The notes: generated from the letters alone by a model not told the origin. DNA of 64,000 nt from Actinomycetota bacterium (GCA_039193795.1 JBCCWI010000011.1:796-64795), one strand, 5' to 3'; counted from the first letter of the stretch, positions 45,535 through 60,826 are shown. A program made the numbers and translations.

Positions 45535-46382
45535 CCGGCGTCGGCCGGGATCAGCGGTTCGATCGCGTTCCAGATCGTGCGACGCACCATGTCGTGGTGG
45601 AGGTACGCGTCGATCGCGTGCCACGGGCTCCCGGTGTCGAGGACGAGGTCGATGATCGCCGGCTCGCCGTCGGTGTCGGGGAAGAGCGGGGCGAGTTCGT
45701 TCACGAGGGCGACCGGCTCGTTCGGGTGGGAGATGTTGACCCAACGACGCACGGTCGTCGGCATGCGGTCCGGCACCGACAGGCGGCGCCGGACGTACCC
45801 CTCGACGCCGAGGGGCGAACCGAGTGTGATCAGTGCATCGAGTTCGAGTCCGGTCGCGTGGATGGCCTCGAGGGCGACGATCGAGCCCATCGAATGGGCG
45901 ACGATGACGCGGGTCGCCGAGCCGACGACGTCGGCGAAGCGCTCGAGCACGACGTCACGGGTGCCGTCGAGGTTCTCGAAGAACGCCGGGACCTGCCAGA
46001 GGTTGAACGCCGAGACACGATCGGCCGCCAGGTTGCCGGCGGCCACCACCGCATCGGAGTCCGACCAGCGGTTGGCGACCTCGGCGAGATCGGTGAGGCG
46101 CTCGGGTTTCACCTCGTCGTACGCAGCGTGGGCCTCGTCGACGACGTCGCCGAGGGTCCGGCGCACCGTCGCCCAGGTCGACTCGGCGGCGCGCTCAGCC
46201 GCCGCGTCGCCGGCGTACCACGACCAGTCCTGGTAGTAGGCGAGTGCGCTGTTTTCCCGCAGCCAGTCGTCGAAACGCGCCGGTGCCGGGGCCGCCAGGG
46301 CGTCGATCCAGGTTGCACGAGCCTCGTCGGCTCCGGGTCCCGGTGGGGGTCCGACGCCGTGGACGAAGACGATGGGCGCCAT
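45531..46382 (-). CDS. Alpha/beta-hydrolase fold protein (lipase/esterase-like)
   Basis: C-terminal 283 aa of ORF 45531..46631, starting MAPIVFVHGVG. Nucleophile-elbow motif VIVAHSMGS. Confidence 0.55.
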   Translation of the reverse strand: MAPIVFVHGVGPPPGPGADEARATWIDALAAPAPARFDDWLRENSALAYYQDWSWYAGDAAAERAAESTWATVRRTLGDVVDEAHAAYDEVKPERLTDLAEVANRWSDSDAVVAAGNLAADRVSAFNLWQVPAFFENLDGTRDVVLERFADVVGSATRVIVAHSMGSIVALEAIHATGLELDALITLGSPLGVEGYVRRRLSVPDRMPTTVRRWVNISHPNEPVALVNELAPLFPDTDGEPAIIDLVLDTGSPWHAIDAYLHHDMVRRTIWNAIEPLIPADAG

Positions 46383-46389
46383 CGGGCGA

Positions 46390-46746
46390 TCAGAGTTCGA
46401 ACGTGGCGCGGGTGAGGACCTCGCCCTCGGTGATCTCGGCGGTCGCCTCACGACGCGTGCCGAACAGCCAGACCGCGCCGTCGGGATCGGCCTCGAGGTT
46501 CTTGATCCACTGGGAGTCGCGCCGCACGGTCGACACGTCGATGCGATCGCCGATGCGGGTTGCCAGCAGCGGGACTTCGCGGGTCTTGCCGCTCTTGCGG
46601 CCGGTCGTCTCGACGACCACGACGCCGACACCGATCGGCAGTGGCGACGTGAGGCCGGCCTTGGCGAGGGGGCGAACGACCGAGTTCAGCGTGCGGAAGC
46701 CCTGCTGGACGGCCGTCTTCTGGAGTTCTTCGAAGAGGGGGATCAC
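46390..46746 (-). CDS. Deazaflavin (F420)-dependent nitroreductase family (DDN-like) small oxidoreductase
   Basis: 118 aa. [47 protein letters not shown] fits the split-barrel DDN-type family. Confidence 0.65.
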
Positions 46747-46755
46747 CCCTCCAGG

Positions 46756-47475
46756 CTACGGGAAGGCGACCTCGTCGAGGAACCAGTCGACCAGGCGGTG
46801 GCAGCGTTCGGTGTTGCCGGCCTCGCGTTCGGTCATCTCGGCCACCATCTCCTCGGGCACCACGCCGATCTCGGCCAGGTAGTCCGGCGGCGCCTCGCGC
46901 AGGAACCCGCGGACGTGCCCGACGTCGACCTCGGGGTGGAACTGGGTGCCGACGGATCGACCGATGCGGATCAGCTGGGTCGACGAGCCGTTGCGGGCCA
47001 GCACCTCGGCCTCGGCGGGCGGATGAAAGCGGTCGTGGTGCCACTCGAACCACGGGCCGTCCGCGAGGACGGCGGGTGCGCCGTCGACGGGCTCGAGGTC
47101 GTACCAGCCGACCTCGGTCACCGGCGCGACCTCGACCGATCCGCCGAGGGCGTCTGCGATCAGCTGACCGCCGAAGCAGACGCCCAGGATCGGCTGGTCG
47201 GCGCTGACCGATCGACGGATCTCGGCCAGTTCGTCGTGGACCCAGTGGGAGATGGCGTCCTTGTCGGCGAGCGAGCGCACCGAGCCCATCAGCACCACCA
47301 GGTCGAAGTCGGCCCAGTCGGGCCAGGGCTCGAACTCCTGTGGCTCGTCGTAGTCGGCGGTGAGCACGTGGGTGTGGACGGTGAAGCCGCGTTCGGCCAG
47401 ACGGACCCCGACCTGCCCGCTCGGACCGTCGGGCTCGTGGGCGATGACCAGGGCGGTGCGGTGGGGGTCGCTCAC
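46756..47475 (-). CDS. Class I glutamine amidotransferase-like protein
   Basis: GTG start at 47475 (VSDPHRTALVIAHEPDG) overlaps the upstream stop. Contains ILGVCFGGQLIADALGG and GTQFHPEVD. Confidence 0.75.
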   Translation of the reverse strand: MSDPHRTALVIAHEPDGPSGQVGVRLAERGFTVHTHVLTADYDEPQEFEPWPDWADFDLVVLMGSVRSLADKDAISHWVHDELAEIRRSVSADQPILGVCFGGQLIADALGGSVEVAPVTEVGWYDLEPVDGAPAVLADGPWFEWHHDRFHPPAEAEVLARNGSSTQLIRIGRSVGTQFHPEVDVGHVRGFLREAPPDYLAEIGVVPEEMVAEMTEREAGNTERCHRLVDWFLDEVAFP

Positions 47476-48332
47476 AGGTCGAACCACACGTGAGCCTGGC
47501 CGGTGCCCGACACCGACTCGTACGCCCCGAACTGGGTGCCCTTGGCCGTGCACGTCGCGCCGCCGAGCGCCCCGACCATCGTGAGGTAGTGGCCGAAGTA
47601 GCCCTCGGGCGCGTGCTGACCGTACTCAGGCACGAAGTCGAGGATGGCGGCGTGGTCGCCGGCCTTCATCCACTCGAGCACCTGGCGGTCGGCGGCACAC
47701 GCCTCCGGCGTGCGGACGTGGAGGTCGGGGTCGGCGGCCTCGTGGTCCCGGAACTGGCGCAGCGGCCAGAACCGGTGGCTGAGCCCACCCGACGCGAGGA
47801 TCACGACCCGACGGTCGAGGCCGGCGATCGCTTCGGCGAGCAGCTGGCCGAACAGGAGGAAGTCGTACGGCTCGCCGGTCTGGACGACGCCGGCCGAGAG
47901 CCAGCGCTCGTCACCCTGGAGGAAGGGCAGGAGGTTGATCGTCGGGTAGTGCACCGGAAGGTACGGGTCGTCGATCGGGGTGATCCAGGTGTCGTCTCGA
48001 CGCTCGCCTGCGGCCGCCCAGGCTTCGGCGAGCTCGCGATCGCCGGGCATGTCGTAGGGCATCTGTCGCATCCCGCGGGGGAGTTCCTCGGAGGTGTAGA
48101 TCCCGGTTCGGCGGTCGTGGCTGGCCACGATGTGCTCGATCGTGGTGAACCAGTGCGTGTCGATCACGACGACGGTGTCGGCCTGCGCCGGCCCGAGCTT
48201 CTCGGACCGGAGGTCGTGGAGACCCTGGAACAGGCTGGTGTCCTCGCCGTCGTTGAGTTCCCGCCGGATCTGCTCGGGCAGGACGAGGGGTGGGACGTGG
48301 GAGACGAGTGCGGCGCCGACGATGCTTCCCAT
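47472..48332 (-). CDS. Class III (LigB-type) extradiol ring-cleavage dioxygenase
   Basis: 286 aa. MGSIVGAALVSHVPPL..., VVIDTHWF, PVHYPTINLLPF and ILASGGLSHRFWPL. Confidence 0.8.
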   Translation of the reverse strand: MGSIVGAALVSHVPPLVLPEQIRRELNDGEDTSLFQGLHDLRSEKLGPAQADTVVVIDTHWFTTIEHIVASHDRRTGIYTSEELPRGMRQMPYDMPGDRELAEAWAAAGERRDDTWITPIDDPYLPVHYPTINLLPFLQGDERWLSAGVVQTGEPYDFLLFGQLLAEAIAGLDRRVVILASGGLSHRFWPLRQFRDHEAADPDLHVRTPEACAADRQVLEWMKAGDHAAILDFVPEYGQHAPEGYFGHYLTMVGALGGATCTAKGTQFGAYESVSGTGQAHVWFDL

Positions 48333-48339
48333 GGTTCTC

Positions 48340-49608
48340 CTAGGCGATGACCTTGACGGGCAGGGTCTTGATCCCGGCGATGAAGTTCGAGCGTAGGTGC
48401 TGGATCTCGCCGTTCGGTTCGAGGCGGTCGACCCGCTTGGCGAGCTCTTCGAAGACGAGTCGCAGCTCCATCCGGGCGAGCCAGGCGCCGAGGCAGAGGT
48501 GAGGGCCGTTGCGGCCGAACGCCATGTGGTCGTTCTTCTCGCGTTCCATGTCGAAGCGCCACGGGTGCTCGAAGCCGTCCTCGTCGTGATTCGCCGAGTT
48601 GAACCAGATCACGACCTTGTCCCCGGCCCTGATCGCCTTTCCGCCGAACTCGACGTCGCGGGTCGCCGTTCGACGGAAGTGCATGGTGACGGCGCTGGTG
48701 CGCAGCACCTCCTCGGTGGTGGTGGCCAGGAGCTCGGGTCGGGCTCGCAGGGTCTGCCACAGCTCCGGGTGGTTCATGAAGTTCCACATGCCATGGGTCA
48801 TCGAATACCGGGTGGTGTCGTTGCCGGCCGCGACGAGCAGGGTGAAGAAGTTGTTGAACTCGCGATCGGTGAGCGGCGTGCCGTCCTTGGTCGGTTCGAG
48901 CAGCTGGCTGATGATGTCGCCGGTGGGGCAGTGCCGACGCTCGGCGGCCCGTTCCTGGGCGAACCGGAAGATCTCGATGGCGGCGGGGGAGCGGAACGGC
49001 ACCATGCGGAACTCGTCGGTGTCGACCAGATCGACGGGGTGGTCGGTGAAGTCCGGGTCGGTGTTGCCCAGCAGTGCGTCGCCCCAGGCGACCAGCTGGC
49101 GGCCGTGCTCGTCGCTCGTGCCGAGCAGCTTGCCGAGCATGCGCATCGGGAGTTCTTCGGCGATGTCGTGCACGAAGTCGAACTCGTCGTTGCGGAGCGC
49201 GCGCTCCACGACCTCGGCGGCCAACTCGCGGATCGGCTCCTCGTAGGTCTCGACCGTGCGCCGGGTGAAGCCCTTGTTGACGAGGCGGCGGTACCGGGTG
49301 TGCTCCGGGGGGTCCATCTCCATCATCGTCTTGCGGGCCGCGTTCTCGTCGGCGTCCATCTCCTCGAGGCGGATGCCCTGTTCGGAGGTGAACGTCTCGA
49401 CGTCGCGGCTGACCGCGAGCGCGTCCCGGTACTTCAGGATCGACCAGAAACCGGAGGCGTCGGCCTCGGGGGTCCAGTGCACCGGGTCCTCGCGGCGCAG
49501 GCGGGCGAAGGTCGCGTGCGGCACCCCCTGGGTGTAGGTGTCATGCGAGGTGATGTCGGCGTCGTCGGGACCGAGGTCGGCGAGATAGTCGTCGACGAAC
49601 GTGCTCAT
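48340..49608 (-). CDS. Cytochrome P450 monooxygenase
   Basis: Start MSTFVDDYL at 49608 (ATGA overlap with the upstream gene). EMDPPEHTRYRRLV, AGNDTTR, and the heme-binding FGRNGPHLCLGAWLA. Confidence 0.9.
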   Translation of the reverse strand: MSTFVDDYLADLGPDDADITSHDTYTQGVPHATFARLRREDPVHWTPEADASGFWSILKYRDALAVSRDVETFTSEQGIRLEEMDADENAARKTMMEMDPPEHTRYRRLVNKGFTRRTVETYEEPIRELAAEVVERALRNDEFDFVHDIAEELPMRMLGKLLGTSDEHGRQLVAWGDALLGNTDPDFTDHPVDLVDTDEFRMVPFRSPAAIEIFRFAQERAAERRHCPTGDIISQLLEPTKDGTPLTDREFNNFFTLLVAAGNDTTRYSMTHGMWNFMNHPELWQTLRARPELLATTTEEVLRTSAVTMHFRRTATRDVEFGGKAIRAGDKVVIWFNSANHDEDGFEHPWRFDMEREKNDHMAFGRNGPHLCLGAWLARMELRLVFEELAKRVDRLEPNGEIQHLRSNFIAGIKTLPVKVIA

Positions 49609-50435
49609 CGGTCGGTCCGGGGTGCGGCCGCCATCGGGTTGGGGCCGGCCCAGACCGTGGTGCCGCCGCCCATCGAGTTGCCGACCTGGCGGTAGTAGCC
49701 ACCGATGATCTCGTACGGGGCGAGTCGGGCCAGCTCCTCGGTGGGGTTGTCGAAGATGTCGAGTTCGGCGTCGCCGGAGTACACCGGGCCGAGCTCGACG
49801 TCGTGGCCGCGCATGGTCACGAGCTCGTCGAGGGAGTCGCGTCCGTCCATCTCGATCGCCGGCATCTGCCGGGTGTGCAGCATCGGGTGGCCGTTGACGA
49901 ACCCCGCCGTCTCGGCCGTCCCGGTGATCGTGAAGCGGGCGTCGGCGATGCGGCGGCCCCACGTGGACAGCGTGGCGCCGAAGCGGCCGCCCGGCTCGAG
50001 CCGGGGACCGGCCTTGCCGATCGTGATCGCCCGGGTCATCCAGATCTCACTCATCTTCTTCGGGTAGCCCTGCACATGTCCCCGGGCCATCGCGAAGTCC
50101 TTGTCGACCCAGATGTAGGCGGCCCGGCTGTAGATCTGGCCCTCGTACTGGCAGCGGACGACGAGGAAGACCTCCTTGTACTGCGCCCGCGCCGGGTCGA
50201 GGAGCTCTTCGAAGGAGTCTGAGCAGCTCTGCCACTCGGCCCAGATCAGGGCGCAGGCGCCGGGGTCGTCGTCGACCGGCTCCAAGCCGTCGGGCAACAG
50301 CTCGGCGACGTTGGCCGGATCGGTGCGGAACTCGACGGTGAGCATCTCGCCCGAGTAGTGCCACGGCGGCCCGGGGAGGATGCCGCCGGCGCCGGTCGGT
50401 GTCCGCGGGTACATGAAGCCCTGGAGTTCTGCCAT
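49605..50435 (-). CDS. Acetoacetate decarboxylase (ADC) family protein
   Basis: 276 aa. YPRTPTGAGGILPGPPWHYSGEMLTVEFRTDPANVAELLP...KEVFLVVRCQYEG is the typical ADC-family pattern. Confidence 0.75.
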   Translation of the reverse strand: MAELQGFMYPRTPTGAGGILPGPPWHYSGEMLTVEFRTDPANVAELLPDGLEPVDDDPGACALIWAEWQSCSDSFEELLDPARAQYKEVFLVVRCQYEGQIYSRAAYIWVDKDFAMARGHVQGYPKKMSEIWMTRAITIGKAGPRLEPGGRFGATLSTWGRRIADARFTITGTAETAGFVNGHPMLHTRQMPAIEMDGRDSLDELVTMRGHDVELGPVYSGDAELDIFDNPTEELARLAPYEIIGGYYRQVGNSMGGGTTVWAGPNPMAAAPRTDR

Positions 50436-50451
50436 GCACCGAGCCTATTCG

Positions 50452-50463
50452 TTTGGTACCGAA
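50452..50463. promoter_or_regulatory. Candidate operator, site A (TTTGGTACCGAA; 11/12 match to the palindrome TTCGGTACCGAA)
   Basis: Lies in the 79-bp divergent region between the ADC-family operon (start 50435, -) and the acyl-CoA dehydrogenase (start 50515, +). Locally AT-richer context ctaTTCGTTTGGTACCGAATgattc. Confidence 0.4.
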
Positions 50464-50514
50464 TGATTCAACCGAGCGGGTTCCCGACGGTCGGTTCTGG
50501 AAGGATGCGAGACG

Positions 50515-51702
50515 ATGACCGACGCACCGACACCCGACGATGCCAAACCGGAGGACTTCGACGACATCCGTGTCGAGGTCCGGCGCCTGTGCGACACGTA
50601 CGGCAACGAGTACTGGCGAGGTCTCGAACCCGATCGCTACCCGACCGAGTTCGTCACCGAGCTCACCGATCAGGGCTGGCTCGGGTCGCTGATCCCCGGG
50701 GAGTACGGGGGTGGTGGTCTGAGCCTCGCCGGCGCGTCGGTGATCCTCGAGGAGATCTCCGCCAGCGGCGGCAACCCGTCGGCGTGCCACGCCCAGATGT
50801 ACGTGATGGGGACCGTGTTGCGGCACGGCTCCGATGAGCAGAAGCGGCACTACCTCCCCCAGGTCGCCGACGGGCGCAAGCGACTCCAGGCGTTCGGTGT
50901 CACCGAACCCTCCGCCGGTTCCGAGACCACCGCGATCCGCACCCGAGCCGAACGCGACGGCGACACCTGGCGCATCAACGGCCAGAAGATCTGGACCAGC
51001 CGCGCCGAGCACTCCGATCTCATGGTGCTCCTCGCCCGCACGACCCCGGCCGACGACGTCGTCAACCGGACGGAGGGTCTGTCGGTGTTCCTCGTCGAGA
51101 TGCGCGGCGACGACGGTGCGCTCGTCCCCGGGCTGACGATCAACCCGATCAAGACGATGATGAACCACAACAGCACCGAGGTGTTCTTCGACGATGTGGT
51201 CGTCCCCGCCGACGCACTGATCGGTACCGAGGGCATGGGGTTCCGTCACATCCTCGACGGCATGAACGCCGAACGCATCCTGATCGCTGCGGAGTGCATC
51301 GGCGACGGTCGCTTCTTCCTCGACAGGGCGAGCGGCTACGCCAACGAGCGGGAGGTGTTCGGGCGCCCGATCGGCATGAACCAGGGCGTCGCCTTCCCGC
51401 TCGCCAAGGCCTACGCCAACCTCGAGGCCGCCGATCTGATGCGCTGGAAGGCCGCCAACCTCTTCGATGCCGGTGCCTCGTGCGCCGCCGAGGCGAACAT
51501 GGCGAAGATGCTCGCCTCGGAGGCCTCGTGGGAAGCGGGGAACGCCGCGGTCCAGACGTTCGGCGGCTTCGGCTTCGCCGAGGAGTACGACATCGAACGC
51601 AAACTGCGCGAGACCCGCCTCTACCAAGTCGCCCCGATCAACAACAATCTCGTGCTCGCCTTCCTCGCCCAGAAGTGCCTGGGACTGCCGAAGAGCTACT
51701 GA
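50515..51702 (+). CDS. Acyl-CoA dehydrogenase
   Basis: 395 aa. FGVTEPSAGSETTAIRTRAERDGDTWRINGQKIWTS and QTFGGFGFAEEYDIERKLRETRLYQVAP. Confidence 0.9.
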   Translation: MTDAPTPDDAKPEDFDDIRVEVRRLCDTYGNEYWRGLEPDRYPTEFVTELTDQGWLGSLIPGEYGGGGLSLAGASVILEEISASGGNPSACHAQMYVMGTVLRHGSDEQKRHYLPQVADGRKRLQAFGVTEPSAGSETTAIRTRAERDGDTWRINGQKIWTSRAEHSDLMVLLARTTPADDVVNRTEGLSVFLVEMRGDDGALVPGLTINPIKTMMNHNSTEVFFDDVVVPADALIGTEGMGFRHILDGMNAERILIAAECIGDGRFFLDRASGYANEREVFGRPIGMNQGVAFPLAKAYANLEAADLMRWKAANLFDAGASCAAEANMAKMLASEASWEAGNAAVQTFGGFGFAEEYDIERKLRETRLYQVAPINNNLVLAFLAQKCLGLPKSY

Positions 51703-52865
51703 TGACCGCACCGCTCGACGGGGTGATCGTCGTCGCTGTCGAACAGGCCATCGCCGCGCCGTTCGCAACGAGACAGCTCGCCGACCTCGGTGCTCGGGTG
51801 GTCAAGATCGAGCGGCCCGGCTCGGGTGACTTCGCCCGCGACTACGACACGGCCGTCGACGGCAGTTCGGCGTTCTTCGTCTGGGGCAACCGCGGCAAGG
51901 ACAGTGTCGTGCTCGACCTGAAGTCCGAGGACGGCCGGGCCACCCTCGAGACCTATGTGGCCGGCGCCGACGTGTTCGTGCAGAACCTCGCACCGTCGGC
52001 TGCCGAACGGATCGGTCTGCTCGCCGCGCAGGTGCACGAACGGCATCCTCATCTGATCGCCTGCGGCATCTCCGGCTACGGCCTCGACGGTCCTCGCACC
52101 GACGACAAGGCGTATGACCTCGCGATCCAGGCCGAGGCCGGCGCGATCTCGCTCACCGGTTCGGAGGTCGAGCCGAGCAAGGTGGGCTTCTCGGTCGCCG
52201 ACATCTCGGCGGCGATGTACGCGCTCACCTCGATCCTCGCCGCGCTCAACCGCCGCCATCTGACTGGCCAGGGTGCCGTCATCGAGCTCTCGATGCTCGA
52301 GACGCTCGCCGAGTGGACCGCCGCTCCGACCTCCGGTGCGGTCGGTCGGGGCGTTCGCCCGACCCGGGCGGGCCATCGCCACGCCATGATCGCCCCCTAC
52401 GGGGTGTACCCCCTCGCCGACGGGAGTGAGATCGTGATCGCCGTGCAGAACCAGACCGAGTGGGTCGCGCTCTGCACCGATGTGTTCGAGCAACCTCAGC
52501 TCGTCGACGATCCGCGGTTCGCGGCCAACGAGGACCGCATCGCCAACATCGAGGCGTTCGAACCGGTCCTCCGTGCCGCTCTCGTCGCCGTGCCCGCGGA
52601 TGAGATGCGCGCCCGGCTCGCGGCCGCGCGGATCGCCGTGTCCTCGGTCAACGAGCCGCTCGCGCTCTGGGAGCACGAGCAGCTTCGGGCTCGTGGGCGC
52701 TTCACCGCCACCGAACTCCCCGGTGGGCGCGTCGAGACCTATCGGGCACCGTTCAACATCGACGGTGTCGCCGGCGCCGCGCCGAAGGTCCCCGCGCTCG
52801 GCGAGCACGACGCCGAGGTGCTCGCAGAACTGGAGCGGCGAGCGATCAGCCGCCGGCGTTCGTGA
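51702..52865 (+). CDS. Family III CoA-transferase (CaiB/BaiF-type)
   Basis: Start MTAPLDGVIVV overlaps the dehydrogenase stop (TGATG). VEQAIAAPFATRQLADLGARVVKIERPGSGDFAR...GKDSVVLDLK. Confidence 0.85.
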   Translation: MTAPLDGVIVVAVEQAIAAPFATRQLADLGARVVKIERPGSGDFARDYDTAVDGSSAFFVWGNRGKDSVVLDLKSEDGRATLETYVAGADVFVQNLAPSAAERIGLLAAQVHERHPHLIACGISGYGLDGPRTDDKAYDLAIQAEAGAISLTGSEVEPSKVGFSVADISAAMYALTSILAALNRRHLTGQGAVIELSMLETLAEWTAAPTSGAVGRGVRPTRAGHRHAMIAPYGVYPLADGSEIVIAVQNQTEWVALCTDVFEQPQLVDDPRFAANEDRIANIEAFEPVLRAALVAVPADEMRARLAAARIAVSSVNEPLALWEHEQLRARGRFTATELPGGRVETYRAPFNIDGVAGAAPKVPALGEHDAEVLAELERRAISRRRS

Positions 52866-53373
52866 TGACCTGACGCAACAGCTGTGCGAGTTGGTGCTTC
52901 TGGTCGTCGTCGAGGCCGGCCGCCATCTCCACCTCGAAGGCGTTGAAGCGAGGGAAGACGTCCTCGATCGTGTCGAGGCCCGCGGGCGTGAGGCGCACGA
53001 GCACCCGGCGGCGGTCCGCCTCCACGCGTTCGCGCTCGACGAGTTGCTGCTTCTCCAGGGTGGTCACGAGCCCGGTCACGGTGCCCTTGGCGAGGTCGCA
53101 CTCGGTGGCGAGCCGGTTGGTCTCCATCTCACCCCACACCCACAGCACCCACAGGATCGTGAAGCCACCCCAGGACAGGTTCGCCGAGGCGAGGACGGTG
53201 CGTTCGGCCGTGCGGCGAACCGCGGCGGCCGCCCGGTAGATGTTGGAGATCGCCTGGAGGGACACGAAATCGAGCGGACGGTCACCGATGGCGGCGCGGA
53301 TCTCGCGCTCGGCCTGCAGCATCTCGTCGGGGGTGGCGTCGGGAGCCATCGTCGTCCTTTCCGGCGACGTCAC
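52846..53373 (-). CDS. MarR family transcriptional regulator (HpaR-like by context)
   Basis: 175 aa. FVSLQAISNIYRAAAAV...WGGFTILWVLWVWGEMETNRLATECDLAKGTVTGLVTTLEKQQLVERE..DRRRVLVRLTPAG. Confidence 0.85.
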   Translation of the reverse strand: MTSPERTTMAPDATPDEMLQAEREIRAAIGDRPLDFVSLQAISNIYRAAAAVRRTAERTVLASANLSWGGFTILWVLWVWGEMETNRLATECDLAKGTVTGLVTTLEKQQLVERERVEADRRRVLVRLTPAGLDTIEDVFPRFNAFEVEMAAGLDDDQKHQLAQLLRQVITNAGG

Positions 53374-53404
53374 CCTAGGCCCGGAGCGCCGGCCGCGCAG
53401 ATCG

Positions 53405-53416
53405 TTCGGTACCGAA
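53405..53416. promoter_or_regulatory. Candidate operator, site B (perfect 12-bp palindrome TTCGGTACCGAA)
   Basis: Lies in the 71-bp divergent region between the MarR gene (start 53373, -) and the FAH-family gene (start 53445, +). Confidence 0.45.
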
Positions 53417-53444
53417 TCATCTCGGTTTGGGCTACGGTCGGACC

Positions 53445-54329
53445 ATGACGGAGATTCGCAGGATCCTGCTCGACGGCTACCCGACCGAGGTCGTCCGCGA
53501 CGGCGACGAGCTCGTCGCCGGCGACGGTCGGCGGGTCGCGATCGCCGACGCAGCGCACCTGGCGCCGGTCGAGCCGACCAAGATCATCTGCATCCATCTC
53601 AACTACCGCAGCCGGGTCGACGAGTTCATGACCAAGCTGCCCGCGGCACCGACCTACTTCCACAAGCCGATCACCGCGCTGTGCGGACATCGGGCCGACG
53701 TGGTCCGCCCCGACGGCTGCGAGTGGCTGAACTACGAGGGCGAGATCGCCATCGTCATCGGCAAGACCTGTCGCAACATCGCGCCCGAGGATGCCGGCGA
53801 GTACATCGCGGGCTACGCGGTCTCCAACGACTACGGCCTGCACGACTTCCGCGACACCGACGCCGGGTCGATGCTGCGGGTGAAGGGCAGCGACACCCTG
53901 TGTCCCGTCGGTCCCGGGCTCGTCACCGACTGGGACTTCCGCGGCAGGCGCATCCAGACGATCGTCAACGGTGAGGTGAAGCAGGACGCCACCACCGACG
54001 AGATGGAGTGGGACATGCACTACATCGTCGCCGACATCGCCCGCACCATCACCCTCGTCCCCGGCGACATCCTGCTGTCGGGCACACCCGCCAACTCCCG
54101 CACCGTCTACCCCGGCGATGTCGTCACCGTGTCGGTCGAGGGGCTCGGCGAGCTGACCAACACGATCGTTCACGGTCCGATGCCGATTCGCACCGACGTC
54201 GGCGCTCAGGTGTCTCGATCCGAAGAGGTCATGTCGACCGCCCAGGGCGGCGACTGGGAGTTCCGCGGCATCCGAGCCCCGCTCGGCCCCGGCGCCAAGC
54301 ACTACGAGAGCACCCTCGACGATGACTGA
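53445..54329 (+). CDS. Fumarylacetoacetate hydrolase (FAH) family enzyme (HpaG/HpcE-like isomerase/decarboxylase)
   Basis: ATG at 53445 (MTEIRRILLDG). KIICIHLNYRSR, NYEGEIAIVIGK and DILLSGTPAN. Confidence 0.85.
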   Translation: MTEIRRILLDGYPTEVVRDGDELVAGDGRRVAIADAAHLAPVEPTKIICIHLNYRSRVDEFMTKLPAAPTYFHKPITALCGHRADVVRPDGCEWLNYEGEIAIVIGKTCRNIAPEDAGEYIAGYAVSNDYGLHDFRDTDAGSMLRVKGSDTLCPVGPGLVTDWDFRGRRIQTIVNGEVKQDATTDEMEWDMHYIVADIARTITLVPGDILLSGTPANSRTVYPGDVVTVSVEGLGELTNTIVHGPMPIRTDVGAQVSRSEEVMSTAQGGDWEFRGIRAPLGPGAKHYESTLDDD

Positions 54330-55788
54330 CGACCTCCGGGCCGACGTCGACGGCGTGACGGTCCGCACCGGCCACCTGATCGCCAACGAATGGGTCGGAT
54401 CCGCCGCCACCTTCGAGAGCCGCTCACCGTTGGACTGGGACGGGCTGCATCTCGCCGACATCGCCCGCGGCGACGCATCGACCGCGGCCGACGCCGTCGC
54501 CGCCGCGGTCGCCGGGTTCGAGACATGGGGGGCGACGACGCCGGCCGAACGGGCCGAGGTCATGCACCGCCTGGCCGACCTGATCGAAGCGAACACCGAC
54601 GCCATCGCCCACGTCGAGAGCCTCGACATGGGCTTCCTCGAGGAGTCGATGCGGCTCCGGCTGGTCGGGCGTGGCGCGGCGAACTTCCGGCTCTACGCCG
54701 ACCTGATCGTCGAGCACGAGGAACGCCACTGGCCAGCGAAGGCCATGGACAACCGCGTCGTGCGGATGCCGGCCGGTCCCGCCGTCGTGATCACCCCGTG
54801 GAACGCGCCGTTCATGCTCTCGACGTGGAAGCTCGCGCCGGCCCTCGCCGCCGGCAACACCGTGATCCACAAGCCGGCCGAGTGGTCGCCGCTCAGCGCC
54901 GCAATCCTCGCCGAACTCGCCGTCGACGCCGGGTTCCCGGCCGGCGCCTACAACCTCGTGCAAGGCATCGGAGCCGAGGTCGGGGCCGAGTTGGTCGCCG
55001 ACCCCCGTGTCCGACGCATCACGTTCACCGGTTCACCGGCGACCGGGCGCCACATCGGCAAGGCGGCGGCGGAGAACCTCGTGCCGTTCACCGCCGAGCT
55101 CGGCGGCAAAGGCCCGCTCCTCGTCTTCGCCGACAGCGATCTCGACGCCGCCGCCGAGAAGGCGGCCTGGCAGTTCGACGACTCCGGTCAGGTCTGCCTC
55201 GCCGGCACCCGCCTGCTGGTCGAAGCGTCGATCAAGGACGACTTCCTCGAACGGTTCCACGCTCACGCTGACGCCCTCGTCCTCGGTGATTCACGCGATC
55301 CCGCCACCGACATCGCACCCCTCGCCAACCCGATCCATCGCGATCGGGTCCACGGCTTCGTCGAACGGGCCCGGGCCAACGGCGACACGATCGTGCGCGG
55401 GGGCGCGCCCGTCGACGGCTCGCTGCACTACGAACCCACCCTCATCGAGCCGGCGAGCAACCACAGCGAGATCGTGCAGTCCGAGATCTTCGGGCCGGTG
55501 CTCACCTTCCAGACCTTCGCTGACGAGGCCGAGGCCGTCGCCCTGGCCAACTCGACCGCCTACGGCCTCAGCGCCATCGTCTACACCGGGTCCCGGGAGC
55601 GAGCTGAGCGGCTTGGCCGCACGATCCGGGCGGGCCTCGTGTGGGTCAACACCTTCCTGGTGCGCGATCTCACCGCCCCGTTCGGCGGGTGCGGCATCTC
55701 CGGCATCGGGCGCGAGGGTGGCGATCACGCGCTCGACTTCCACGCCGATCTCAAGACGGTGATGATCCTCGACGGGACCACCGAGTAG
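54322..55788 (+). CDS. NAD(P)-dependent aldehyde dehydrogenase (HpaE-like semialdehyde dehydrogenase by context)
   Basis: 488 aa. VITPWNAPFMLSTWKLAPALAAGNTVIHKPAEWSP, FTAELGGKGP and QVCLAGTRLLV (catalytic Cys). Confidence 0.9.
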   Translation: MTDDLRADVDGVTVRTGHLIANEWVGSAATFESRSPLDWDGLHLADIARGDASTAADAVAAAVAGFETWGATTPAERAEVMHRLADLIEANTDAIAHVESLDMGFLEESMRLRLVGRGAANFRLYADLIVEHEERHWPAKAMDNRVVRMPAGPAVVITPWNAPFMLSTWKLAPALAAGNTVIHKPAEWSPLSAAILAELAVDAGFPAGAYNLVQGIGAEVGAELVADPRVRRITFTGSPATGRHIGKAAAENLVPFTAELGGKGPLLVFADSDLDAAAEKAAWQFDDSGQVCLAGTRLLVEASIKDDFLERFHAHADALVLGDSRDPATDIAPLANPIHRDRVHGFVERARANGDTIVRGGAPVDGSLHYEPTLIEPASNHSEIVQSEIFGPVLTFQTFADEAEAVALANSTAYGLSAIVYTGSRERAERLGRTIRAGLVWVNTFLVRDLTAPFGGCGISGIGREGGDHALDFHADLKTVMILDGTTE

Positions 55789-55803
55789 GGGTTCGAAGGC
55801 CGG

Positions 55804-56583
55804 TCAGTACAGCGAACCGCCGCCGCCCGACTCGACTTCGCCGCGTGCGGCAGCGAGCGAGGCTCGGGCGCCGTCGCCCAGTGCGAGCTGGTCGGCGATG
55901 GCGGTGACCATCCGCATGCCCTGCGCGAAGCGCTTGGGCACGAGCGGGCCGGTGGCGTGGCAGCCTGGCATCACCCCGGCCTTCTGACACTCGGCGATGA
56001 TCGTGGCGTAGGCCTCGTCGAAGGCCGGCTCACCGTCGTTGTTCGCCGGCGGAAGATCGAGGGTCAGCGACAGGTCGGCGGGGCCGACGTAGACCGCGTC
56101 GATACCAGGCACCTCGAGGATCGCCGGCAGGTTCTCGACCGCCTGCTTGGTCTCGATCATCGGGATGACAGCGACGTTCTCGCGGGCCCACTCGACATAG
56201 TCGGGTCGCCGGATCCGGCCGACCGTCGGACCGAACGAGCGCGAACCTTCCGGGGCGTACCGGCACGCCTTCACCGCGGCCTCGGCCTCCTCGGGGGTGT
56301 TGACCATGGGGATGATGACCCCCTCGGCGCCGGCGTCGAGCATCTTGCCGATGATGCCGGGCTCGTTCCACGGCACCCGCACGATCGGGATCGATCCACC
56401 GTGTTCGATCGCTCGGATCAGTTCCACCGTGATCTGGTACTCGACGGTGCCGTGCTGGGTGTCGACACAGACATAGTCGAAGCCGGCCCGGGCCATCACC
56501 TCCGCCGAAAGTGTCGCCGGGATCGAGAGCCAACCGCCGACGACGTTCTCACCGTCGTTCCACATCTGCCGAAGCGTTCGCAT
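55804..56583 (-). CDS. HpcH/HpaI family aldolase
   Basis: 259 aa. [56 protein letters not shown] and [14 protein letters not shown]. Confidence 0.85.
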
Positions 56584-56612
56584 GCCCGTTGTCTAGCGCA
56601 TACGTTTCGGCG

Positions 56613-57491
56613 ATGAGCGCCCTCGACCCCACGCCCCTCACGAAGTCCTACGCCACCGTCGCCGGCAAGCGGATGGCCTACCACGAGCGGGGTGAGGGCG
56701 ACGCGATCGTCTTCCTCCACGGCAACCCGACCTCGTCGTACCTGTGGCGCAACATCATTCCCCACGTCGAGTCGTCGGGTCGCTGCATCGCGCCCGATCT
56801 GATCGGGCAGGGCGACAGCGACAAGCTCGACGACACCGGGCCCGACGCCTACACCTTCGTCCAGCACCGCGAGTATCTCGACGGTCTGCTCGAACAGCTC
56901 GATCTCGGTGATGCGGTCACGCTCGTCATCCACGACTGGGGTTCCGCGCTCGGCTTCGACTGGGCGAACCGACACCGCGACCGGGTGAAGGGGATCTGTT
57001 ACATGGAGGCGATCGTTCGGCCCGTCACCTGGGCGCAGTGGCCCGAGGCGGCCCGGGGGATCTTCCAGGGGTTCCGCTCCGACGCAGGCGAGGACATGGT
57101 GATCGGCAAGAACCTGTTCGTCGAGGCGGTGCTGCCCGCGTCGATCCTGCGCGACCTCACCGATGACGAGATGAACGAGTATCGGCGCCCGTTCGTCGAG
57201 CCCGAGCACCGGCGCCCGACCCTCACCTGGCCCCGCCAGATCCCGATCGAGGGCGAGCCGGCCGACGTCGTCGAGATCGCCCAGTCCTACGCCGACTGGC
57301 TCTCGACGAGCGACGTGCCGAAGCTCTTCGTCGACTGTGATCCCGGGGCCATCCTCATCGGCGAGACCCGCGAGTTCTGCCGGACCTGGCCGAACCAGAC
57401 CGAAGTCCGGGTGTCGGGCAATCACTTCGTGCAGGAGGACTCCCCCCACGAGATCGGCGAGGCGCTGGCCGCCTGGCTGGACGGGATCTGA
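56613..57491 (+). CDS. Haloalkane dehalogenase (alpha/beta hydrolase, HLD-II type)
   Basis: ATG at 56613 ([13 protein letters not shown]). [19 protein letters not shown], nucleophile HDWGSALGF and a C-terminal [10 protein letters not shown]. Confidence 0.85.
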
Positions 57492-57509
57492 CCCGCCGTC
57501 CTCGCCTGT

Positions 57510-58814
57510 TCAGTGGTAGGGCAGGTACTGATCGCGCTCCCAGTCGGTGAGCTCGTCGCCGTCGACGTGCTCGCCGACCGCCGCGATGTAGCGCTCCCAC
57601 TCGGCGTCCTTGTTCACCAAGAAGTTGGCACAGACGTCTGCACCGACGGCCTCCTGGAGGCGTGTGTCGGCACGGAGATCGACGAGCGCGTCCCGGAGGT
57701 TCTCGGCGGAGTGGACGTCGGTGTTCACGTTCTCGAAGCCGTCCTCCACCATCGGGTCGGGACACGGGAGGTCGTCGACGACCCCCAACCGTGCCGCCTG
57801 GAGCACGGTGGTGACCGCGAGGTGGATGTTCGCCGAACCGTCGGGCAGCCGGTTCTCGATTCGTGTTCCGGGGCCGCCCACCTCGGGGATGCGGTTGCCG
57901 GCGCACCGGTGTTCATAGCCCCAGTTGGCCCAGTAGCCGTTGAGTTCGCCCGGCTGGAGTCGGCGATAGCCGGTGATGGTCGGCACGCACAGCGCGGTCA
58001 TGCCGCGATGGTGATGGGTGAGGCCCGCGAGACACTGCTTGGCCAGCGGGGAGAGGTCGCCATCGGCGACCAATGCGTTGTCGCCGTTCTCGTCGACGAG
58101 GGAGACGTTGACGTGGATCCCCGAACCGGACGAGCCGGCGAACGGCTTGCCGAGGAAGGTCAGGTCGAGGCCCTGCTTGAGCGCGGTCTCGCGGGCCAGG
58201 ACCCTGAACAAGAACGCGTCGTCGGCCGCCTTCAGCGCATCGTCGTACTCGAGTGTGAGCTCGAACTGGGCCTCGTCGAACTCGGCGTTGATGGACTCGG
58301 GCTTGAATCCACAGGCCTCGGCGGTCCAGGCGATGTCGGCGATGACGCCCTCGGGATCGGCGCCGGGTCCCGTCGCGTACACGAACGAACGGGGTGTCTC
58401 CCACCGTTTCCACCCGCCTGCGCCGTCGGGCTCCATCACATAGGCCTCGAGTTCGATGCCCACCTTGACGCCGAATCCGAGCTCGGCCCAATCGGCCACC
58501 GCCTGTTGCAGCGCGTACCGCGATGAGAAGGTGTACGGCGCGCCCTCGAAATCGAGGTGGGCGATCGCGACGCCGGTGCGGTCGTCCTCCCAGCTGGGCC
58601 GGAGGGTGTCGCGCTCCATCGTGGCCCAGACGTCCTTCAGTCCCTCGAACAACGATGCGCCGGGTGCGGGCACCAGGTCTCGGTCATAGGCCGTACCGAA
58701 GACGGTCACACAGTGTCCGGTGCCTCGCTCCGCGATGCGCGGTGGCAGGTACTTGCCGCGGGCGAGGCCCAGGTGGCACGGCCAGAGGATGCGGTAGCGG
58801 TCGTAGTCGGTCAC
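57510..58814 (-). CDS. Glutamine synthetase family protein (gamma-glutamyl-amine synthetase-like, GlnA-paralog type)
   Basis: 434 aa, GTG start. GIELEAYVM, NAEFDEAQFELTL, GSGIHVNVSL and NRIP...RIENRLPDGSANIHL. Confidence 0.85.
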   Translation of the reverse strand: MTDYDRYRILWPCHLGLARGKYLPPRIAERGTGHCVTVFGTAYDRDLVPAPGASLFEGLKDVWATMERDTLRPSWEDDRTGVAIAHLDFEGAPYTFSSRYALQQAVADWAELGFGVKVGIELEAYVMEPDGAGGWKRWETPRSFVYATGPGADPEGVIADIAWTAEACGFKPESINAEFDEAQFELTLEYDDALKAADDAFLFRVLARETALKQGLDLTFLGKPFAGSSGSGIHVNVSLVDENGDNALVADGDLSPLAKQCLAGLTHHHRGMTALCVPTITGYRRLQPGELNGYWANWGYEHRCAGNRIPEVGGPGTRIENRLPDGSANIHLAVTTVLQAARLGVVDDLPCPDPMVEDGFENVNTDVHSAENLRDALVDLRADTRLQEAVGADVCANFLVNKDAEWERYIAAVGEHVDGDELTDWERDQYLPYH

Positions 58815-58830
58815 GCTGCGACCCTACTCG

Positions 58831-58842
58831 TTCGCTACCGAA
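58831..58842. promoter_or_regulatory. Candidate operator, site C (TTCGCTACCGAA; 11/12 match to TTCGGTACCGAA)
   Basis: Lies in the 56-bp divergent region between the GS-like gene (start 58814, -) and the gamma-glutamyl hydrolase gene (start 58871, +). It shares the left flank CTCGTTCG and the right flank T with sites A and B. Confidence 0.4.
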
Positions 58843-58870
58843 TGGTCCTGTCCGACTAGCCTGCGACACC

Positions 58871-59587
58871 ATGAAGCCGCTGATCGGGATCGTCGGTCGC
58901 CGCAAGAAGGGCCACGACATCGCCGCGATGCCGGAGTCGCTGCACCACCTCGATCTCGAGCTGTATTTCAGCGACTACAGCCGGGGGGTTCTGGCCGCCG
59001 GTGGCCTCCCGGTCCACATCCCGATCGAGGCCGATCCGGCCGCGATCGCCGCACGCATCGACGGTGTGCTGCTGTCCGGTGGGGCCGACGTCGCACCGGC
59101 GCTCTACGGCCAAGACGCCGAGACCGACCTGTACCCGCCCGAAGCCGACCGCGACCGGATGGAGATGGCCCTGATGGATGCCGCGGTCGACACCGGCATG
59201 CCGGTGCTCGGCATCTGCCGGGGCCTGCAGATCGCCAACGTGCATGGTGGCGGGTCACTGCATCAGCACGTGCCGGAGCAGGCGCGCTACGACATCGCGC
59301 CCACGGCGGTGGTCGACGCCGTCCGTTTCGAGTCCGATTCGGTGCTCGGTCGCCTGTACGGCGAACACCGCGACGTCAACACCTTGCACCACCAGACCGT
59401 CGACCGGGTCGCCGCCGACTACCGGGTCACCGCCTGGGGAGCCGACGGCGGCGTCGAGGGTCTCGAACACGCGGAGCTCCCCATCGTGTCCGTGCAGTGG
59501 CACCCGGAGATGATGACCGAGCGCGACACCGACCCGGTCTTCGGCTGGTTGGTCGAGGCTGCGAAGCTGTACGCCGCGGCGCGCTGA
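58871..59587 (+). CDS. Gamma-glutamyl-gamma-aminobutyrate hydrolase-like peptidase C26 (class I amidotransferase fold, PuuD-like)
   Basis: ATG at 58871 (MKPLIGIVGRR). GVLLSGGADVAPALYG, PVLGICRGLQIANV and VQWHPE. Confidence 0.85.
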   Translation: MKPLIGIVGRRKKGHDIAAMPESLHHLDLELYFSDYSRGVLAAGGLPVHIPIEADPAAIAARIDGVLLSGGADVAPALYGQDAETDLYPPEADRDRMEMALMDAAVDTGMPVLGICRGLQIANVHGGGSLHQHVPEQARYDIAPTAVVDAVRFESDSVLGRLYGEHRDVNTLHHQTVDRVAADYRVTAWGADGGVEGLEHAELPIVSVQWHPEMMTERDTDPVFGWLVEAAKLYAAAR

Positions 59588-59603
59588 TTGGTACCGTCGC
59601 GCC

Positions 59604-60380
59604 ATGGCGTACGAACGGATCACGGTCGAGCGCGACGGCGACGTCGTCACCCTCACCCTCGCCAACCCCGAGAAGCGCAACGTGTTGGCGCTCGACACGA
59701 TGCAGGAGATCACCGCGGCGTTGACCGAGATCGGTGACACCGACGCGCTCGGCGTCATCGTCGCGGCCGAAGGCCCGGTGTTCTCCGCCGGCCACAACTT
59801 CGGCGACATGCTCGGTCAGTCCGAGGAGGACGTGCGGGCACTCTTCGACGTCTGCACCGAGATGATGACCCTCATCCAGGCACTGCCCCAGGTCGTGATC
59901 GCCCGGGTCCACGCCCTGGCGACGGCCGCCGGTTGCCAGTTGGTCTCGATGTGTGACCTGGCGGTCGCCGGTGCGTCGGCGGCGTTCGCTGCGCCCGGGG
60001 GCAAAGGCGGGTTGTTCTGCCACACGCCGATGGTCGGCATCTCCCGGGCCATCGGTCGCAAGCGAGGCCTCGAGCTCGCCTTGATCGGGGATCCGATCGA
60101 CGCGCACACCGCCGCCGACTGGGGGCTCGTGAACCGGGTTGTCCCCGACGATCGGCTGGTGGACGAGACGGCGGAGCTGATGGCTCGCGCCACCCGCGGT
60201 TCGGCCACGTCCAAGGCGCTCGGGAAGCAGACGTACTACGCCCAGATCGACATGGCGCAGAGCGATGCCTACGAGTTCGCGACCGGCGTGATGTCGGCCG
60301 GCGCGGTCTCACCCGACGGGCAGGAGGGCATCGCATCCTTCGTGGAGAAGCGGCGACCGGAGTTCGGTCCTCGGGTGTGA
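59604..60380 (+). CDS. Enoyl-CoA hydratase/isomerase (crotonase) family protein
   Basis: 258 aa. VVTLTLANPEKRNVL...VIVAAEGPVFSAGHNF...ATAAGCQLVSMCDLAV. Confidence 0.85.
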   Translation: MAYERITVERDGDVVTLTLANPEKRNVLALDTMQEITAALTEIGDTDALGVIVAAEGPVFSAGHNFGDMLGQSEEDVRALFDVCTEMMTLIQALPQVVIARVHALATAAGCQLVSMCDLAVAGASAAFAAPGGKGGLFCHTPMVGISRAIGRKRGLELALIGDPIDAHTAADWGLVNRVVPDDRLVDETAELMARATRGSATSKALGKQTYYAQIDMAQSDAYEFATGVMSAGAVSPDGQEGIASFVEKRRPEFGPRV

Positions 60381-60826
60381 GCTGGCAGCTCGCCCAGTTC
60401 AACGTCGCGACGGCGAAGTTCGACGACGACGATCCGCGACTGGCCGAGTTCATCGACAACCTCGATCGGCTCAACACCCTCGGCGACGACGCGCCCGGTT
60501 CGGTGTGGCGCTTCCAGAGTGACTCCGGCAACTCCGTGGACGTGAAGGCGTACGAGGATCCGCGGATCCTGCTCAACCTCACGGTGTGGGAGGACGTGAA
60601 GTCGCTCTGGGACTATGTCTACAAGACCGATCACGTCGACTTCCTGCGACGCCGCACCGAGTGGTTCGAGGTCGAGTCGCAACCCTTCGTCGTGATGTGG
60701 TGGGTCCCGGCCGGCCATCGACCCACCCCGGCGGAAGGCGTCGAGCGTCTCGAACACCTGCGGGCGAACGGGCCGACGCCCTACGCCTTCTCGTTCCGTG
60801 ACAACTACGAGCCACCGTCCCGGTGA
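60377..60826 (+). CDS. DUF3291-like protein (stand-alone paralog of the N-domain of 21017..22015)
   Basis: 149 aa. WQLAQFNVA, WRFQSDSG, TVWEDVKSLWDYVYKTDHVDFLRRRTEWFE, MWWVPAGHRPT and ERLEHLRANGPTPYAF. 4-nt overlap with the crotonase gene. Confidence 0.7.
   Translation: MSWQLAQFNVATAKFDDDDPRLAEFIDNLDRLNTLGDDAPGSVWRFQSDSGNSVDVKAYEDPRILLNLTVWEDVKSLWDYVYKTDHVDFLRRRTEWFEVESQPFVVMWWVPAGHRPTPAEGVERLEHLRANGPTPYAFSFRDNYEPPSR

Follow-up and report, generated by a model that had tools for sequence, protein, structure and literature searches.

The question raised by this locus is whether a single regulator, acting through one kind of operator, governs the divergent promoters of a catabolic gene island. 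The island lies in a 64,000-nucleotide stretch of DNA from an Actinomycetota bacterium (GCA_039193795.1, JBCCWI010000011.1:796-64795), referred to here as the window, and the region of immediate interest spans positions 50,436 to 58,870. In an earlier note, made from the sequence alone, the same 12-bp palindrome was reported in three divergent intergenic regions, and these were attributed to one dimeric repressor, the MarR-family protein encoded within the island. The palindrome is almost certainly a functional, conserved cis-regulatory site. That the MarR protein binds it and acts as a repressor is predicted from sequence comparison and appears quite probable.

The three sites, together with the core that each contains, are as follows.

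50448..50467: operator A, TTCGTTTGGTACCGAATGAT, core TTTGGTACCGAA at 50452-50463; between the ADC-P450-LigB-GATase operon and the pair encoding an acyl-CoA dehydrogenase (ACAD) and a CoA-transferase
53401..53420: operator B, ATCGTTCGGTACCGAATCAT, core TTCGGTACCGAA at 53405-53416; between the MarR gene and the pair encoding an FAH-family protein and an aldehyde dehydrogenase (ALDH)
58827..58846: operator C, CTCGTTCGCTACCGAATGGT, core TTCGCTACCGAA at 58831-58842; between GS-like and the C26-crotonase-DUF3291 genes

All three cores were re-found in the window where they had first been placed, and their intergenic location is borne out by the gene map. Site A is flanked by the ADC-family start at 50435 (minus strand) and the ACAD start at 50515, site B by the MarR ATG at 53349 (minus strand) and the FAH-family ATG at 53445, and site C by the GS-like GTG at 58814 (minus strand) and the peptidase C26 ATG at 58871. 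The intergenic stretches are AT-richer, as had been claimed, with a G+C content of 58–67% against 69.7% for the window, and the reported agreement of the flanks holds at all three sites (TCGTT...AAT(G/C)(A/G); joint form TCGTTyGsTACCGAAT(G/C)(A/G)). Two details of the original description require revision. The distance from core to start codon is 17–56 nt instead of 30–70, and the 12-mer is the core of a longer palindrome of 18–20 bp with the consensus aTCGTTyGGtACCrAACGAt (full 20-bp form, ATCGTTCGGTACCGAACGAT). By the matrix described below, conservation is highest at TT and GG of one arm and at CC and AA of the opposite one, and the centres of the half-sites are 10 bp apart.

The bare 12-mer is weak evidence. 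If up to two mismatches are allowed, it has 4 matches in the window against 1.2 expected, a number reached by 2 of 100 shuffled sequences. With at most one mismatch, 13 matches occur in the 4.81-Mb genome (69.4% G+C), and the probability that 3 of the 13 fall inside 8.4 kb by chance is 0.0025. Most of the 10 matches outside the island lie in coding-like frames, although the distinction between coding and intergenic DNA, which was drawn from stop-to-stop open reading frames and third-codon-position G+C, is crude at this high G+C content. The extended motif, on the other hand, is decisive evidence for a real element. A genome scan with a position weight matrix had been proposed in the earlier note; with a symmetric matrix of 22 columns, built from 74 distinct sites of other genomes, operators A (37.1 bits), B (29.8 bits) and C (23.8 bits) are the three best of 4.8 million positions, followed by a site on contig C100 (19.1 bits) and then by positions at 15.3, 13.0 and 12.4 bits. 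Matches to the pattern TCGTTYGGNACCRAAYGA with at most one mismatch are present in 21 of 61 related genomes, and the reversed pattern has none in the same 61. A weaker half-site at 59587-59598 and a 10-bp core at 51221-51230, also noted at the outset, do exist. They score -21.2 and -5.6 bits, respectively, while 422 positions of the genome score above zero, and they are thus regarded as noise.

The C100 site deserves separate mention. Located at 2148-2165 of that contig (locus L001), it is a fourth genomic copy of the 18-mer, TCGTTCGGTACCGAATCA, with the same sequence as site B. Downstream of it is an FKBP gene, whose conserved -10-like hexamer is about 45 nt away and which is followed by a P450 gene whose product is 37–39% identical to the island-P450 orthologues of relatives. 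Neither G004, the nearest genome with MarR, nor G014 has the site in the corresponding region, and it is at most a putative member of the regulon.

Phylogenetic footprinting, which the earlier note had also proposed, favors the element: the palindrome is kept in orthologous intergenic regions of at least eight genera of uncultured Acidimicrobiales. Alignment of the DNA upstream of MarR reveals a single conserved block, (G/A)AT..TT(T/C)GG(T/C)ACC(G/A)AACGAT (columns 2307-2330), amid diverged DNA. In 20-kb locus maps of relatives the palindrome occurs between MarR and FAH, between ACAD and ADC, and between C26 and GS-like, exactly as in the window, and the divergent arrangement of MarR and FAH with an operator between them is likewise conserved. 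For instance, the orthologous C site, gaCCGTTCGGCACCGAACGAgta, is found between C26 and GS-like in loci L021-L023, L026, L037 and L039. Additional copies are also known. Four genomes of the same genus have one between ADC and P450, and some relatives, though not the window genome, have a second site 45 nt nearer to MarR that overlaps its -10 element.

Sites scoring above 15 bits were counted upstream of orthologous genes (for MarR, within 200 nt; for ADC, in non-redundant relatives), with the following result.

ADC: sites upstream in 24/29
FAH: sites upstream in 20/29
MarR: sites upstream in 23/40
C26: sites upstream in 7/13
GS-like: sites upstream in 5/9
ACAD: sites upstream in 4/10
CoA-transferase: sites upstream in 0/14
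HpaI: sites upstream in 0/8
crotonase (ECH): sites upstream in 0/7
DUF3291: sites upstream in 0/5

Sites are therefore placed ahead of the first genes of operons and not ahead of internal genes.

Two observations on individual loci may be added. In L022, L023 and L026 (genomes G008, G012 and G010), at about 15160-15460, an extra near-perfect operator, TCGTTTGGTACCAAACGA, lies between ADC and P450, and the P450-LigB-GATase genes appear there to be under an operator-controlled promoter of their own. Motif variants of the TCGTTAG-N4-CTAACGA kind, which belong to the same motif family, are seen in L062, L068 and L075.

A palindrome of this kind might also be read as an RNA hairpin in 5' leaders, or as a chance or small repeat sequence with no regulatory role. 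A perfect 20-nt palindrome can certainly be folded, and the 12-mer alone is only marginally enriched in the window. Yet the element occurs in 3–4 copies per genome, all of them intergenic, is conserved across genera at orthologous promoters, has an empty reversed control, and lies upstream of the predicted transcription starts of leaderless genes. Departures from symmetry point the same way. Among the 74 sites, 150 departures affect one arm (40 of them wobble changes and 110 that break the pair), while 22 alter both arms with compensation, a comparison that is only indicative, since the sites were chosen by their similarity to the palindrome. Uncompensated changes in one arm argue for a protein site instead of an RNA hairpin, and a hairpin or idle repeat is hardly credible as an explanation.

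The candidate protein is encoded by the island itself. The MarR-family gene product scores 46.4 bits against PF01047 (cut-off 24.6), exceeds the cut-offs of PF12802 and PF22381 as well, and has 44 MarR-family matches in the PDB, the closest being MgrA (2bv6, E = 4.8e-13), with HpaR (7el2) at E = 2e-7. It is the only regulator detected by Pfam in the region from 42.8 to 62.3 kb, in agreement with the claim that the island has no other. The gene had been given as 52846..53373, and while its existence stands, its start does not: the long form from GTG 53373 is unlikely because this codon overlaps a -10-like hexamer, and ATG 53349, which yields the 167-aa protein called in the public collection, is preferred. 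The subfamily comprises 914 clusters in public data (E <= 1e-10), and its named members bear the generic MarR name only. The best NCBIfam match is HpaR (TIGR02337), at 56.5 bits against a cut-off of 121.2. Identity with the HpaR equivalog was rejected on account of this score, and the motif is not of the TTAA-N4-TTAA type.

Orthologues of the protein, with 45–86% identity, occur in 16 of 60 relatives and in 8 of 35 genera, as well as in at least 35 public metagenome-assembled genomes (MAGs) titled Acidimicrobiales, Acidimicrobiia or Candidatus Poriferisocius. All carriers of MarR and the motif are uncultured MAGs, many of them from marine or sponge samples.

Motif and regulator occur together. 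Across the 61 genomes, the motif is present in 16 of 17 that have MarR and in 5 of 44 that do not (Fisher p = 1.5e-9, not corrected for phylogeny). Some of the exceptions are instructive. G060, a MarR-positive genome below the threshold, has the exact 12-mer upstream of MarR with two mismatches in the flanks, and in G020, scored as MarR-negative with the motif, the site lies beside FAH at one end of a contig of 3 kb, so that MarR would fall beyond the break. Genome-wide matches almost all fall less than 30 kb from MarR. The enzymes provide a useful comparison, as the ADC gene is present in 20 of the 61 genomes. In G018 (L101) and G030 (L102), both on single contigs, the ADC-P450-LigB-GATase genes, GS-like and C26 are kept at 55–87% identity. 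Neither genome has a MarR orthologue, any site above 6 bits in 20 kb, or a genome-wide match to the pattern; the motif thus tracks the regulator and not the enzymes. G057 similarly keeps the ADC gene and has neither MarR nor motif. G018 and G030 have either lost MarR and the operator or never possessed them. No regulator is recognizable near their clusters, and the cluster may be constitutive in these two organisms.

This distribution bears on a different explanation, namely that the operator is real but serves a different transcription factor, for example one of the FadR/GntR type, whose gene lies outside the island, and that MarR has other targets. Boxes of FadR/GntR proteins have a TGGT...ACCA core, and the center of the palindrome, TGGTACCA, resembles half-sites of this type. 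Adjacency to MarR is not absolute either, with sites in G021 and in the L059-L064 clade lying 19 kb to 1.2 Mb from it. G021 has its MarR gene 1.2 Mb from the cluster, and its sole match genome-wide, a perfect palindrome, immediately precedes ADC. In the complete Acidimicrobiales MAGs L057, L059-L061 and L064, some 24 nt separate the starts of FAH and MarR, and no operator lies in this gap; L059-L061 and L064 have no site within 10 kb of MarR, and their only genome-wide matches are at distances of 19–30 kb, in one case immediately ahead of ADC-P450. Against another factor, however, are the tracking of MarR by the motif, with ADC (and in G018 and G030 the full cluster) retained where both are absent, the lack of any second regulator found in the island or near the MarR-less clusters, and the site in the upstream region of MarR itself in 23 of its 40 orthologues. 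Control by such a factor is accordingly judged very unlikely.

One further locus may be described here. On L091 (10001-14921), a contig titled as a Gammaproteobacteria MAG with 47% G+C, a MarR protein 37% identical to that of the island is encoded 4.4 kb from a copy of the island palindrome that scores 32 bits, which lies directly upstream of a P450/GS-like pair. The association of regulator, operator and targets seems to cross phyla, unless this contig is misbinned.

The position of the operators within the promoters is relevant to how they might act. Promoters were assigned by conserved TAnnnT hexamers and their spacing, and the putative elements are listed below.

50442..50447, minus strand: ADC promoter, -10-like TAGGCT, at 6 nt from the ATG and abutting operator A
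50466..50471, minus strand: ADC promoter, -35-like TTGAAT; the 18-nt spacer to the -10-like hexamer is the operator
58821..58826, minus strand: GS-like promoter, -10-like TAGGGT, at 6 nt from GTG 58814 and abutting operator C
53433..53438, plus strand: FAH promoter, -10-like TACGGT, at 6 nt from ATG 53445, with the -35 region under the right arm of operator B
53372..53377, minus strand: MarR promoter, -10-like TAGGGT, with the start of operator B 23 nt upstream, beside the -35 region
58857..58862, plus strand: C26 promoter, -10-like TAGCCT, at 8 nt from ATG 58871, with the -35 region under operator C

The ADC promoter is the best-conserved target. More than 15 orthologous promoters have a TA(G/A/T)(G/C)(G/C)T hexamer in the -10 position. 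Loci L036, L041, L043, L045, L046, L068 and L074 keep the string cTTGAATCGTT...AACGATTAGGGT, and the longer arrangement cTTGAATCGTT...AACGATTAGGGT-N6-ATG is found in more than 15 genomes. Such an arrangement fits a leaderless actinobacterial promoter in which the operator would serve as the spacer. Conservation is also seen elsewhere: GAACGAGTAGGGT at the -10 place of GS-like in L021-L026, a TAnnnT hexamer at that of FAH (alignment columns 2243-2262), a TA(T/G)(G/C)GT block at that of MarR (columns 2613-2622), and TAACGT or TAGCCT at that of C26 in L021-L026. The MarR promoter differs in layout, in that TAGGGT is followed by a short leader with AAGGA and then by ATG 53349, which agrees with the 167-aa protein in public data. 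More broadly, TAnnnT hexamers are found 6–8 nt before the starts of ADC, FAH, GS-like, C26, HpaI, hydrolase and FKBP (window stretches 50436-50447, 53433-53447, 56584-56613 and 58815-58826; L001 at about 2089-2105), a hint that transcripts of this organism are leaderless as a rule.

Several observations weigh against a single MarR repressor working through this operator, or against the force of the figures given above. No convincing promoter was seen for the ACAD unit, and a scan of 50300-59000 for E. coli-type sigma-70 promoters found none, a result that is uninformative for an actinobacterium of 69% G+C. The MarR-positive genome G061 (L057), which was reached through its locus, has no genome-wide match at up to one mismatch, and in L089 and L090 (Nitriliruptoraceae), with a MarR protein 46% identical, there is no site in the stretch of the locus that was examined. 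Loci were picked via MarR or the motif, which biases both the association and the upstream fractions upward, and the matrix and its site list were seeded by a pattern from the window's own sites, which makes the scores partly circular. Finally, operator B is centered at about -46 of the MarR promoter, a position compatible with activation too.

This last point leads to the possibility that MarR binds the palindrome and activates some of the promoters, or regulates them in both directions; it would then touch RNA polymerase, either at its own promoter from a position near -46 or at the plus-strand promoters. The center of operator B is indeed some 46 nt upstream of the predicted MarR transcription start, and HpaR of Yersinia activates the promoter of a type VI secretion system from an upstream site (PMC7180172). 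On the other side, both at ADC, the best-conserved target, and at GS-like, the operator fills the spacer between the -35 and -10 elements and abuts the latter, which is a position of repression. L102, with no MarR, has lost the operator and TTGAAT from its ADC promoter and keeps the TAnnnT hexamer and the 6-nt distance to the ATG, suggesting that this promoter works without a bound protein. Activation is considered improbable, and repression by MarR is the reading adopted below.

That one dimeric regulator, the island MarR, would unite the divergent promoters is supported by four independent lines of comparison: conservation, co-occurrence, the loss of the motif along with MarR, and position in the promoters. 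The units adjoining A, B and C would belong to the regulon by their sites, and the HpaI-like and alpha/beta hydrolase units of the island have none. The target units and the remaining genes of the region, with the source of each assignment, are as follows.

46756-47553, minus strand: class-I GATase (Pfam/NCBIfam); target operon 1 (46756..50435)
47472-48332, minus strand: LigB/HpaD-like dioxygenase (Pfam/NCBIfam); target operon 1
48340-~49600, minus strand: P450 (Pfam/NCBIfam); target operon 1
49605-50435, minus strand: ADC/MppR-like (Pfam/NCBIfam); first gene of target operon 1
50515-51702, plus strand: acyl-CoA dehydrogenase (Pfam); target unit 2 (50515..52865), with site A 52 nt upstream of its ATG
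~51700-52865, plus strand: family III CoA-transferase (Pfam); target unit 2
52846-53349, minus strand: MarR-family regulator, 167 aa (PF01047)
53445-54329, plus strand: FAH/HpaG-like (Pfam/NCBIfam); target unit 3 (53445..55788)
54322-55788, plus strand: HpaE-like aldehyde dehydrogenase (Pfam/NCBIfam); target unit 3
55804-56583, minus strand: HpaI-like aldolase; no operator site
56614-57491, plus strand: alpha/beta hydrolase; no operator site
57510-58814, minus strand: GS-like, of the gamma-glutamyl-amide synthetase type (PF00120, 235 bits); target unit 4
58871-59587, plus strand: peptidase C26, of the gamma-glutamyl hydrolase type (Pfam); target unit 5 (58871..60826)
59604-60380, plus strand: crotonase (ECH; Pfam); internal gene of unit 5
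60377-60826, plus strand: DUF3291 (Pfam); internal gene of unit 5

The gene order of operon 1 is kept in relatives, with the operator immediately upstream of ADC. Genes of the HpaG, HpaE, HpaD and HpaI types are all represented in the island. The GS-like protein falls below every NCBIfam equivalog cut-off. Between the HpaI-like aldolase and the alpha/beta hydrolase, whose divergent starts (56583 and 56614) are 30 nt apart, no site was found by scanning. In eight genomes (G008, G010, G012, G013, G020, G026, G028 and G035), the ADC orthologue was flagged for an internal TGA, and these prove to be ordinary stop codons. Selenocysteine was thereby ruled out for the ADC orthologues; the C-terminal tail of the window's ADC-like protein is merely a few residues longer. 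Outside the island proper are a carotenoid/stilbene-cleavage oxygenase gene (RPE65 family, 400 bits) at 44035-45534 and a gene resembling F420H2-dependent quinone reductases at 46390-46746, both without an operator site. The interval 45531-46390 has no Pfam match in any long frame.

A working model can be assembled from these elements. A MarR homodimer would recognize the 18–20-bp palindrome aTCGTTyGGtACCrAACGAt, in which the TT.GG and CC.AA cores, 10 bp or one helical turn apart, have the geometry expected for the two winged-helix domains of the dimer. In the OhrR-DNA complex (1z9c), for example, a dimer sits on a palindrome with its recognition helices in adjacent major grooves. Every operator is predicted to lie within a back-to-back pair of promoters. 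For the minus-strand units (ADC-P450-LigB-GATase and GS-like), it would fill the spacer of a leaderless promoter and abut its -10 element; for the plus-strand units FAH-ALDH and C26-crotonase-DUF3291, it would lie over the -35 region, and for the MarR gene beside it. The bound dimer may thereby exclude RNA polymerase from both promoters of a pair. The model further supposes, on the precedent of PcaV and HpaR, that a pathway substrate or intermediate binds MarR, frees the DNA and induces the whole island. The pathway itself would combine homoprotocatechuate-type meta-cleavage with a gamma-glutamylation pair, a P450 and CoA-dependent steps. We infer MarR binding, the sign of repression, the promoter assignments and the ligand step; the type of circuit, a local MarR repressor with palindromic operators in the divergent, largely leaderless promoters of an aromatic-catabolic island, is well supported.

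Related systems are known. In logic, the nearest analogue is PcaV, a MarR repressor of Streptomyces coelicolor that is encoded divergently from a catabolic operon, has pseudopalindromic operators of 20 bp and is released by the pathway substrate (PMC3616709). Both it and the island protein are actinobacterial MarR regulators divergent from an aromatic-catabolic operon, with palindromes of about 20 bp in the shared intergenic region, and the PcaV operators are conserved across species. There are several differences. The PcaV operator (TCAG-N4-CTGA) is unrelated to TCGTTyGGtACCrAACGA, and PcaV is not among the PDB matches of the island protein at E <= 1e-3. While PcaV controls the protocatechuate/beta-ketoadipate operon, the island has at least three separate site-bearing promoter regions over 8–30 kb, and its route is one of meta-cleavage and gamma-glutamylation.

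HpaR, which represses the homoprotocatechuate (hpa-meta) operon of E. coli W and Yersinia and is likewise of the MarR family, has palindromic sites that overlap the -10 element and an AT-rich operator, TTAA-N4-TTAA (PMC7180172). It provides the best NCBIfam match and governs genes of the HpaG, HpaE, HpaD and HpaI types, which are also found in the island. Its operator, however, is unrelated to the island motif, and the island regulon adds P450, ADC-fold, GS-like, C26 and CoA-dependent genes. MgrA and OhrR share the winged-helix MarR fold family with the island protein. They are redox and virulence regulators of Firmicutes, at most about 25–30% identical to it, and offer no link by operator or signal. 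A full-text search with four variants of the 12-mer returned only cloning primers with KpnI sites and no described operator in the searchable literature.

With respect to its meaning, the principle is a textbook one, that of a MarR repressor with palindromic operators in the divergent promoters of an aromatic-catabolic cluster. The design is compact, in that a 20-bp operator would form the entire spacer of a leaderless promoter, and it is a possible part for use in high-GC hosts. The finding also supplies a precise cis-element and a candidate regulator for an island that exists only in uncultured bacteria, and since the operator delimits the regulon, it likely delimits membership in the pathway. 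The more novel question is which compound the island degrades. A tentative answer, more doubtful than probable, is that the MarR/operator pair marks an undescribed regulon, widespread in marine and sponge Acidimicrobiales and present on one Gammaproteobacteria-binned contig, for the breakdown of some aromatic amine or acid along an unusual route. Its steps would include gamma-glutamylation (GS-like with C26/GATase), P450 hydroxylation, ring cleavage of the LigB type, a reaction in which an ADC-fold enzyme replaces the usual hydratase, and CoA-dependent conversions. If this is true, the operator would define which genes belong to the pathway, and the MarR protein could be put to use as a sensor, or as bait, in the search for the substrate of the pathway.

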